Positions 51,062-54,000 of a stretch of 60,619 bases of DNA are shown in pieces. The DNA comes from Verrucomicrobiota bacterium. GTDB taxonomy: Bacteria; Verrucomicrobiota; Verrucomicrobiia; Opitutales; UBA953. Position 1 is the stretch's first letter. Each line of letters starts with the position of its first letter. The notes beneath the pieces were generated by a model that saw only the letters and a list, made by a program, of their open reading frames with translations, ran no database searches and was not told where the DNA came from. The stretch spans positions 1-60,619 of the forward strand of contig JBKCKE010000077.1 of NCBI GenBank assembly GCA_046301395.1, in the 5' to 3' direction. The translations under genes and the position numbers were made by a program.

Positions 51062-54000
51062 TCAGTTACGATCCGGGGTGGCGGTGGTGGTCGAGCCGAG
51101 GCGGACATCCAGGCACAGGGCCTGCATCTCCTTCATCAGCACGTTGAAGGACTGGGGCGTGCCGCTGACGAGGGTGTTGTCACCCTTGACGAGCTGCTCG
51201 TAGATCTTGGTGCGTCCGGCGACGTCGTCGGACTTGACCGTGAGGAGTTCCTGCAGCGTGTAGGCGGCGCCGTAGGCTTCGAGGGCCCAGACCTCCATTT
51301 CGCCGAAGCGCTGACCGCCGAACTGCGCCTTGCCGCCCAGCGGCTGCTGGGTGACGAGCGAGTACGGACCGATCGAACGCGCGTGGATCTTGTCGTCCAC
51401 GAGATGGTGCAGCTTGAGCATGTAGATGTAGCCCATCGTCACCTTGCGATCGAACGCATCGCCGGTTCGGCCGTCATAGACGGTCGACTGGCCGGAGGCG
51501 TCGAAGCCCGCGAGCTTCAGCATCTCCTCGATGTCCGCTTCCTTGGCGCCGTCGAACACCGGCGTTGCGATCGGCACGCCGTGGCTGAGGTTGCGGCCAA
51601 GCTCGAGCAGCTCGTTGTCGTTCAGCGACTTGATGGTTTCATCCTCGCCGTAGATCTTCTTCAGGGTCTCGCGCAGCGGCTTGAGATCCTGCCTCTGATA
51701 ATAGGCGTCGATGGTCTGGCCGATGCGCTTGCCGAGGCCGGCGCAGGCCCAACCGAGATGCGTCTCGAGGATCTGGCCGACGTTCATGCGCGAGGGCACG
51801 CCGAGCGGGTTGAGCACGATGTCGGCATGCGTACCGTCCTCGAGGAACGGCATGTCCTCGATCGGCACGATCTTCGACACCACGCCCTTGTTGCCGTGAC
51901 GGCCGGCCATCTTGTCGCCGGGCTGGATCTTGCGCTTCACCGCGACGAAGACCTTGACCATCTTCATCACGCCGGGCGGCAGCTCGTCGCCGCGCTGCAG
52001 CTTCTCGACCTTGTCGAGGAAGCGCTGTTCGAGGCCCTTCTTCGACTCGTCGTACTGCTTCCGCATGGCCTCGATCTCGGCCATCAGCTTGTCGTTCGGC
52101 GAGGCGAACAGCCACCACTGCGACTTCGGATACTCGTCGAGCACCGCGCGGGTGATCTTGGTATCCTTCTTGAAGCCCTTGGGGCCGGCAATGCCCTGGC
52201 GGTTCTCCAGGAGCTCGGCGAGGCGGTTATAGACGTTGCGGTCCAGGATCGCCTGCTCGTCGTCGCGGTCCTTGGCCAGACGCTCGATCTCCTCGCGCTC
52301 GATCGCCAGCGCACGCTCGTCCTTGTCGACGCCGTGGCGGTTGAACACGCGGACTTCCACGATGGTGCCCTGCACGCCCGGAGGCACGCGCAGCGAGGTA
52401 TCGCGGACGTCGGAGGCCTTCTCGCCGAAGATGGCGCGGAGCAGCTTCTCTTCCGGCGTCATCGGGCTCTCGCCCTTCGGCGTGATCTTGCCGACCAGGA
52501 TGTCGCCGGCGCGGACTTCCGCACCGATGTAGACGATGCCGGCTTCGTCGAGGTTCTTCAGCGCTTCTTCCGAGACGTTCGGAATGTCGCGGGTGATTTC
52601 CTCAGGGCCGAGCTTGGTGTCGCGAGCCATCACCTCGAATTCTTCAATATGAATTGAGGTAAACACGTCGTCCTTCACGATCCGCTCGGAGAGCAGGATC
52701 GAGTCTTCGAAGTTGTAGCCGTTCCACGGCATGAACGCGACCAGCACGTTGCGGCCGAGCGCGAGCTCGCCGAGATCGGTCGACGGACCGTCAGCGATGA
52801 TGTCGCCCTTCTTGACGATGTCGCCGACCTTCACCAGCGGACGCTGGTTGATGCAGGTCGACTGGTTCGAGCGCTGGTACTTCATCAGCCGGTAGATATC
52901 GACGCCCGACTTGGTCGGATCGAGATCCTCGGTGGCGCGGATCACGACGCGGGTGGCGTCGATCTGGTCGATCACGCCCGAACGGCGGGCTGCGATCGCA
53001 GCACCGGAGTCACGGGCGACCACGCCTTCCATGCCGGTGCCGACGAACGGCGCCTCGGCACGAACCAGCGGCACCGCCTGGCGCTGCATGTTCGAGCCCA
53101 TCAGCGCGCGGTTGGCGTCGTCGTTCTCGAGGAACGGGATCAGCGCCGCGGCGACCGAAACCAGCTGCTTCGGCGACACGTCCATGTAGTCGACCTTGTC
53201 CGGCGTCACCGGCAGCACTTCGCCGGCATGACGGCAGACCACCAGATCGTCGGTGAAGCGGCCCTTGGCATCGAGCGGCACGTTGGCCTGCGCGACGCGG
53301 TAGCGGCCCTCTTCCATCGCCGACAGATAGACCACCTCATCGGTGACCCGGCCGTCCTTGATCTTGCGATAGGGCGTCTCGACGAAGCCGTATTTGTTGA
53401 CGCGCGCGAACGTCGCCAGCGAGTTGATCAGGCCGATGTTCGGACCTTCCGGCGTCTCGATCGGGCAGATCCGGCCGTAATGCGTCGGATGCACGTCGCG
53501 GACTTCGAAGCCGGCACGCTCGCGGGTCAGACCACCCGGGCCGAGCGCCGACAGGCGCCGCTTGTGGGTGATCTCCGACAGCGGGTTGGTCTGGTCCATG
53601 AACTGCGACAGCTGCGAGGAACCGAAGAACTCGCGCACCGCGGCAGCCGCGGGCTTGGCGTTGATCAGATCCTGCGGCATCACGGTGTCGATATCGACGC
53701 TCGACATGCGCTCCTTGATGGCGCGCTCCATGCGGAGCAGGCCGATCCGGTACTGGTTCTCCATGAGCTCGCCGACCGAGCGCACCCGGCGGTTGCCGAG
53801 GTGGTCGATGTCGTCGATCTCGCCCTTGCCGTCGCGCAGGTCGACCAGCGTCTTGATGACCGCCAGGATGTCTTCCTTGCGCAGCGTGCGATGGGTGTCG
53901 GGCGCATCGAGCTCGAGGCGCATGTTCATCTTGACGCGGCCGACCGCGGACAGGTCGTAGCGTTCTGCATCGAAGAACAGCGACTGGAACATCGCCTGCG

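Follow-up and report, generated by a model that had tools for sequence, protein, structure and literature searches.

Organization of the contig and its rpoB gene

The stretch of DNA analyzed here, referred to below as the window, is the entire contig JBKCKE010000077.1 (60,619 nucleotides, nt) of the Verrucomicrobiota assembly GCA_046301395.1, and the subject of this report is its rpoB gene. The minus strand of the window encodes RpoC (46692-51026, 1444 amino acids, aa) and, next to it, RpoB, whose open reading frame (ORF) is intact and in-frame (51062-55168, 1368 aa). Upstream of rpoB, at higher coordinates and on the same strand, are located rplL (55610-55987), rplJ (56041-56619), a gene for a 317-aa 2-hydroxyacid dehydrogenase (57140-58093), rplA (58272-58964), rplK (58971-59399), nusG (59528-60076), and secE (60076-60414). 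As judged by sequence comparison, the contig is a technical chimera, in which about 51 kilobases (kb) of a freshwater Opitutales genome (Verrucomicrobiota) and 9.3 kb of a Bradyrhizobium genome are fused in-frame inside rpoB.

The Opitutales-derived segment covers positions 1-51284; collinear reference contigs are available from 5007 onward, and 1-5006 was included by composition. It contains rpoC, which is a native Opitutales gene, and the 3' end of the chimeric rpoB (51062-51284), that is, the codons from residue 1295 onward together with the stop codon. The 5' 94% of rpoB (51293-55168, residues 1-1292) belongs to the Bradyrhizobium parent. The rest of the Bradyrhizobium segment (55610-60619) holds the seven upstream genes named above in the same order as in five Bradyrhizobium contigs (L007-L011, described below) and extends to the end of the contig, which aligns to position 5369 of L007. 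From the junction to the end of the window, all DNA is that of Bradyrhizobium, with no return to Opitutales. There is a single junction and no second one, and the foreign segment is not flanked by recipient DNA on both sides.

The position of the switch was determined by a three-way alignment of the window with both parents. The last base found only in Bradyrhizobium is 51293, and the first base found only in Opitutales is 51284. The crossover lies within the 8 nt from 51285 to 51292 (minus strand; GTCTGGGC on the coding strand), which are identical in both parents and fall in codons V1293-A1295 of a conserved motif. Around these 8 nt, the two parents share a zone of about 350 nt at 80-86% identity. 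Because the join was made at homologous positions without an insertion or deletion, the reading frame was kept and the 1368-aa ORF remained intact. Over residues 1-1292, the protein agrees with Bradyrhizobium RpoB (L007) at all 1292 positions, and its identity to Opitutales RpoB is 48.8%; over residues 1309-1368, it matches Opitutales RpoB at 60 of 60 positions, and its identity to Bradyrhizobium RpoB is 55%. The initial annotation of this DNA had placed a switch inside rpoB, in a conserved block between 51062 and 51450, and had attributed the last 60 or so residues of RpoB to the organism on the left. Both statements proved correct, and the interval of the switch was narrowed to 51285-51292.

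Two single-base differences lie close to the junction. On the Bradyrhizobium side, the whole of 51293-55168 differs from L007 and L009 only at 51314, 22 nt from the crossover, where the coding strand of the window reads T (codon GGT) and the three Bradyrhizobium references, as well as all Opitutales references, have C. This T could be a single-nucleotide polymorphism (SNP) of the strain or another private variant, or mixed reads may have led to an error in the consensus. A 45-mer carrying the T allele gave 38 matches, all of them in more distant alphaproteobacteria (at most 94% identity over the local 201 nt) and none in a near-identical Bradyrhizobium. On the Opitutales side, 51062-51284 is the same as in the Opitutales contigs L002, L003, L005, and L006 except at 51278, and shows many mismatches to the Bradyrhizobium contigs L007-L009. 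Position 51278 is A in the window, in the Opitutales contigs L001 and L004, and in Bradyrhizobium, and G in L002, L003, L005, and L006, so it is polymorphic in the Opitutales population. The A could also be the Bradyrhizobium base, in which case the junction zone would be a small mosaic instead of a single switch.

The junction was not reproduced in independent datasets. The chimeric 1368-aa RpoB was found on no other contig on record, and the 59-mer across the junction, scanned in search of other chimeras or of parent variants that would lengthen the shared k-mer, had 0 matches among 241 million metagenome records. One further RpoB of 1368 aa in the Bradyrhizobium cluster (P0068) was considered as a possible second chimera and rejected: apart from a short internal deletion, it is an ordinary RpoB of the alphaproteobacterial type, and its C-terminus is native.

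Two parents from different phyla

The left parent was identified from six independent metagenome contigs (L001-L006), which were found by exact-sequence look-up of the RpoC of the window and all encode an identical protein. In five of them, the genes upstream of rpoC encode a complete native RpoB of 1266 aa as well as L7/L12 (126 aa) and L10 (162 aa) proteins of their own, and four of these five also have their own L1 (236 aa), L11 (141 aa), NusG (189 aa), and SecE (68 aa). In L003, the remaining contig, the sequence begins inside the native rpoB. In blastn comparisons, positions 36689-51474 of the window are 96.5-99.5% identical to L001-L006 at the nucleotide level, and further right the identity is 65-80%. 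Positions 5007-38034 are collinear with seven other contigs (L092-L095 and L134-L136) at 99.4-99.9% identity. Altogether, independent contigs of freshwater Opitutales cover 5007-51284 at 96.5-99.9% nucleotide identity, and this collinearity leaves no additional junction apparent between those positions. No exact-protein match was on record for the 1077-aa ORF at 2987-6220, and window 1-5006 is therefore without an independent reference contig; the composition of this part, which is like that of the rest of the left side, suggests that it comes from the same Opitutales genome.

The relatives of the left-hand genes give the same picture. A scan of a collection of species-representative genomes with RpoC produced close matches in Verrucomicrobiota only, and the closest RpoC relatives (98-99% amino-acid identity) are encoded in freshwater metagenome-assembled genomes (MAGs) labelled Verrucomicrobiota or Opitutales. 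Seven of the nine closest MAG contigs in blastn carry a native rpoB and lose their high identity to the window at 51429-51474, among them the 620-kb contig L013, which is labelled LR for long-read; the other two, L015 and L017, end inside rpoC. Every Opitutales relative examined that reaches rpoB is native at the breakpoint.

The right parent was identified from five contigs (L007-L011) among the many that share the exact L7/L12 sequence of the window, which is present in 430 blocks of the contig collection; one of the five is a 7.57-Mb genome contig from NCBI. In blastn comparisons, window 51124-60619 is 99.2-99.98% identical to these contigs, and further left the identity is 67-78%. Right of the junction, only 3 of 9335 bases differ from L007 and L009 (51314, 58416, and 60015, all three private to the window), which corresponds to 99.97% identity, and 2 mismatches over 7946 nt were counted against L011. 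Native genes for a 1372-aa RpoB followed by a 1400-aa RpoC are present in L007-L009; L010 and L011 end inside rpoB. The dehydrogenase gene of the window, which lies between rplA and rplJ and thereby splits the usual rplKAJL cluster, is found at the same place in all five contigs. NCBI has an entry, named Bradyrhizobium viridifuturi, whose sequence is the same as that of L007 RpoB, and the source names of the clusters that contain the exact L7/L12, L11, and dehydrogenase sequences are Bradyrhizobium as well. For the L1 protein of the window (58272-58964), no exact-protein match was on record.

The two flanks thus have clearly different closest genomes, with cross-identities of just 65-80%, and the parents belong to different phyla, Pseudomonadota on the right and Verrucomicrobiota on the left. 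Native sequence across the breakpoint was found elsewhere for each of them, in 13 Opitutales contigs and in three Bradyrhizobium contigs (L007-L009). Identities of such size over kilobases rule out chance. The initial annotation had described the right side as similar to Bradyrhizobium or other Nitrobacteraceae, and the left side as similar to Verrucomicrobia or their relatives in the PVC group. The separate blastn comparison of the two sides bore this out, since the best-match lineages differ and a common lineage for both halves, which would have spoken against a chimera, was not observed.

The base composition also changes at the junction, in spite of a GC content of about 64% on both sides. 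The minus-strand Opitutales genes of the left side have coding strands that are markedly rich in C at third codon positions (fraction of C, C3, about 0.62; fraction of G, G3, about 0.29). The values for the rpoC of the window (G3 0.29, C3 0.62) equal those of rpoC in the Opitutales contig L001. The body of rpoB in the window (51293-55168) has G3 0.40 and C3 0.50, close to the values of Bradyrhizobium rpoB (0.40 and 0.49); native Opitutales rpoB has 0.26 and 0.64. Over the genes of each side, the median C3/(C3+G3) is 0.65 on the left (29 genes) versus 0.55 on the right (7 genes; Mann-Whitney p = 3.5e-4). The GC skew of the plus strand, about +0.16 over 42000-51000 (range +0.13 to +0.22), drops at 51 kb and remains near 0 across 51000-60619. 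Of the two compositional comparisons that had been suggested at the outset, codon usage and tetranucleotide profiles, the former thus switches at the junction in its third-position G and C usage, but the latter hardly separates the sides; with the right-hand windows just marginally the most distant ones, it was dropped as a discriminator.

Some variation was also observed among the Bradyrhizobium contigs themselves. L008 and L010, otherwise near-identical to the window, show dense clusters of substitutions in a block of about 400 nt of rpoB, corresponding to window 52292-52706, and such a block marks the end of L010. L008 has a second cluster in rplK, homologous to window 59118-59325. These clusters suggest strain-level recombination tracts or a mixed-strain consensus.

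Origin of the join

The contig is an assembly or library artefact and not a real biological feature. An assembly or binning chimera had been put forward in the initial annotation as the most economical explanation. The chimera itself is supported by the native parents, by the unique junction, and by the composition; it is not a mere binning error, because the join sits within one contig, which makes it a misassembly or a library chimera. Between these two, the analysis favors an in-silico misassembly of the interspecies translocation type, with a probability of roughly 80%. Interspecies translocation is the MetaQUAST class for inter-genome joins in contigs (PMC10174551). The present contig resembles this class in that its flanks come from different species, its breakpoint lies in conserved sequence, and its parents have native continuations. 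It differs in that the join is inter-phylum and lies inside a single-copy protein-coding gene, with the frame kept and a plausible full-length RpoB as the product, and in that strict identity of the parents at the switch spans only 8 nt, a 32-nt match being located 4 nt from it.

This 32-nt match (51249-51280, minus strand) is the probable point at which the assembly graph merged. The longest exact matches between the parents over the shared operon (L007 against L001 and L004) are one of 33 nt (52703-52735) and two of 32 nt, at 51249-51280 and in rplL, and the breakpoint lies 4 nt from the match at 51249-51280, with the switch 4-12 nt upstream of the 32-mer. In the proposed sequence of events, reads of the Opitutales population and reads of Bradyrhizobium would have been present together in one dataset, and the graph paths of both genomes would merge at 51249-51280 for any k of 32 or less. 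The assembler may then have entered this stretch via the Bradyrhizobium path and left it via the Opitutales path. At 51281 and 51284, two Bradyrhizobium-specific sites just upstream, the window carries Opitutales alleles, which would shift the apparent switch to 51285-51292. These alleles were probably introduced when the consensus or mismatches were corrected with reads, those of Opitutales being more abundant, or they are private variants of the strains in the sample.

Contigs from other assemblies are consistent with such an event. L011 breaks at window 52674, which is 29 nt past the 33-mer, L010 breaks at 52376, and the Opitutales contig L003 begins inside rpoB at a position homologous to window 52489 or nearby. 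Breaks in the same conserved rpoB blocks in other assemblies imply that these blocks are points of graph ambiguity, and where these organisms occur together, rpoB seems to be a place at which assemblies repeatedly break or are misjoined.

Several points weigh against a graph misjoin. The parentage of both sides, the breakpoint, and the native state of the parents were seen in the sequences themselves, but the assembler step was inferred from them. Tetranucleotide profiles in windows of 4.7 kb barely split the two sides, with values of 2.68 and 2.27 on the right and 2.55 for the rpoC window on the left. At the observed switch, the two reference sets agree strictly over just 8 nt. Moreover, neither reference set contains the 21-mers across 51293 (G) and 51284 (C), and a pure de Bruijn traversal cannot yield them; the misjoin model therefore needs an extra step, which could be correction of the consensus or SNPs private to the strains in the sample. 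Natural variants that would remove this difficulty were not found in the scans with the junction 59-mer and the 45-mer of the T allele.

The extra step would be unnecessary if the chimera had formed in vitro. In this second explanation, template switching or incomplete extension at the conserved block, by the polymerase chain reaction (PCR) or by multiple-displacement amplification (MDA) during library preparation, produced chimeric reads, and the assembler was faithful to them when it connected a Bradyrhizobium path of low coverage with that of Opitutales. Template switching, unlike exact k-mer graphs, tolerates a zone such as the one here, which is about 350 nt long and 80-86% identical with 8 nt of strict identity, and the evidence of two independent parents fits equally well. 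The PCR and MDA chimeras known from 16S amplicons are similar in that the crossover occurs at homologous positions in a conserved block between two templates; here, the product is a shotgun contig. However, the breakpoint adjoins one of the three longest exact k-mers shared by the parents, which a graph artefact predicts and template switching does not require. The rpoB breaks in other assemblies again indicate ambiguity of the graph, and lone chimeric molecules seldom outweigh correct assembly paths. An in vitro origin is accordingly considered unlikely.

A genuine recombinant, in which an Opitutales cell very recently took up the Bradyrhizobium region from secE-nusG-rplKAJL to the 5' part of rpoB and now pairs a hybrid beta subunit with its native beta' subunit, has in its favor an ORF that is intact, in frame, and joined at homologous positions, but is extremely improbable: the 9.3-kb flank is 99.97% identical to free-living Bradyrhizobium, including the Bradyrhizobium-specific dehydrogenase gene between rplA and rplJ, so that a real transfer would have to be extremely recent; the only junction leads to a contig end in Bradyrhizobium DNA; rpoB is native in every sampled member of the Opitutales population, among them the six contigs with identical RpoC and relatives as close as 99.5-99.9% nucleotide identity; the junction occurs in no other dataset; and it would be very unlikely both that sequences about 80% identical recombine homologously at 8 nt of identity and that a hybrid beta 49% diverged from the native one works beside the native beta' with L10, L7/L12, L1, L11, NusG, and SecE replaced at once.

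An origin by a mobile element or by integration was considered separately and set aside. Nothing of this kind was seen at the junction, where no repeat or integrase search was made, and the fusion is homologous and in-frame. The only RNA gene detected in the window is a transfer RNA gene for alanine (anticodon GGC; 19096-19171, minus strand), found by ARAGORN and Rfam, at 19.1 kb; the Rfam scan of the whole window returned this gene alone and nothing relevant to the junction.

Significance for sequence databases

The join has no biological significance, and its value lies in data curation. The contig, which appears to come from a public source of sequences, contains 9.3 kb of Bradyrhizobium DNA as well as a fictitious but plausible full-length RpoB. 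The near-equal GC content and tetranucleotide profiles of the two sides explain how such a contig can pass binning, and with the fusion being in-frame, binning and standard checks of completeness and contamination can miss the chimera. Annotation and marker-gene tools would accept the chimeric RpoB. Because rpoB, rplA, rplJ, rplK, rplL, nusG, and secE are common phylogenetic markers, the chimera could distort taxonomy, marker-gene trees, screens for horizontal gene transfer, and synteny. The contig should be divided at 51285-51292, and 51285-60619 should not be attributed to the Opitutales genome.

The identity of the foreign parent is in agreement with this kind of problem. Contamination by Bradyrhizobium, especially by strain DFCI-1, has been documented for sequencing runs, ultrapure water systems, and deposited genome assemblies (Laurence et al. 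2014, PMC4023998; Salter et al. 2014, PMC4228153). In a genomotaxonomy table, the genomospecies of DFCI-1 stands next to B. viridifuturi, both in group II (PMC6585233). The foreign segment resembles these cases in that its RpoB reference is identical to an entry named after B. viridifuturi, the neighbor of the contaminant. Unlike the documented cases, Bradyrhizobium here may have been either a reagent contaminant or a resident of the sampled water. Accession ERF85050.1 presumably belongs to strain DFCI-1.

Two other records encountered in the comparisons also look mis-binned. The RpoB MGE5158699.1, labelled Gemmatimonas sp., groups with Bradyrhizobium RpoB in a cluster at 90% identity. The contig L082, labelled uncultured Bifidobacterium sp., encodes a Verrucomicrobia-like RpoC that is 54% identical to that of the window.

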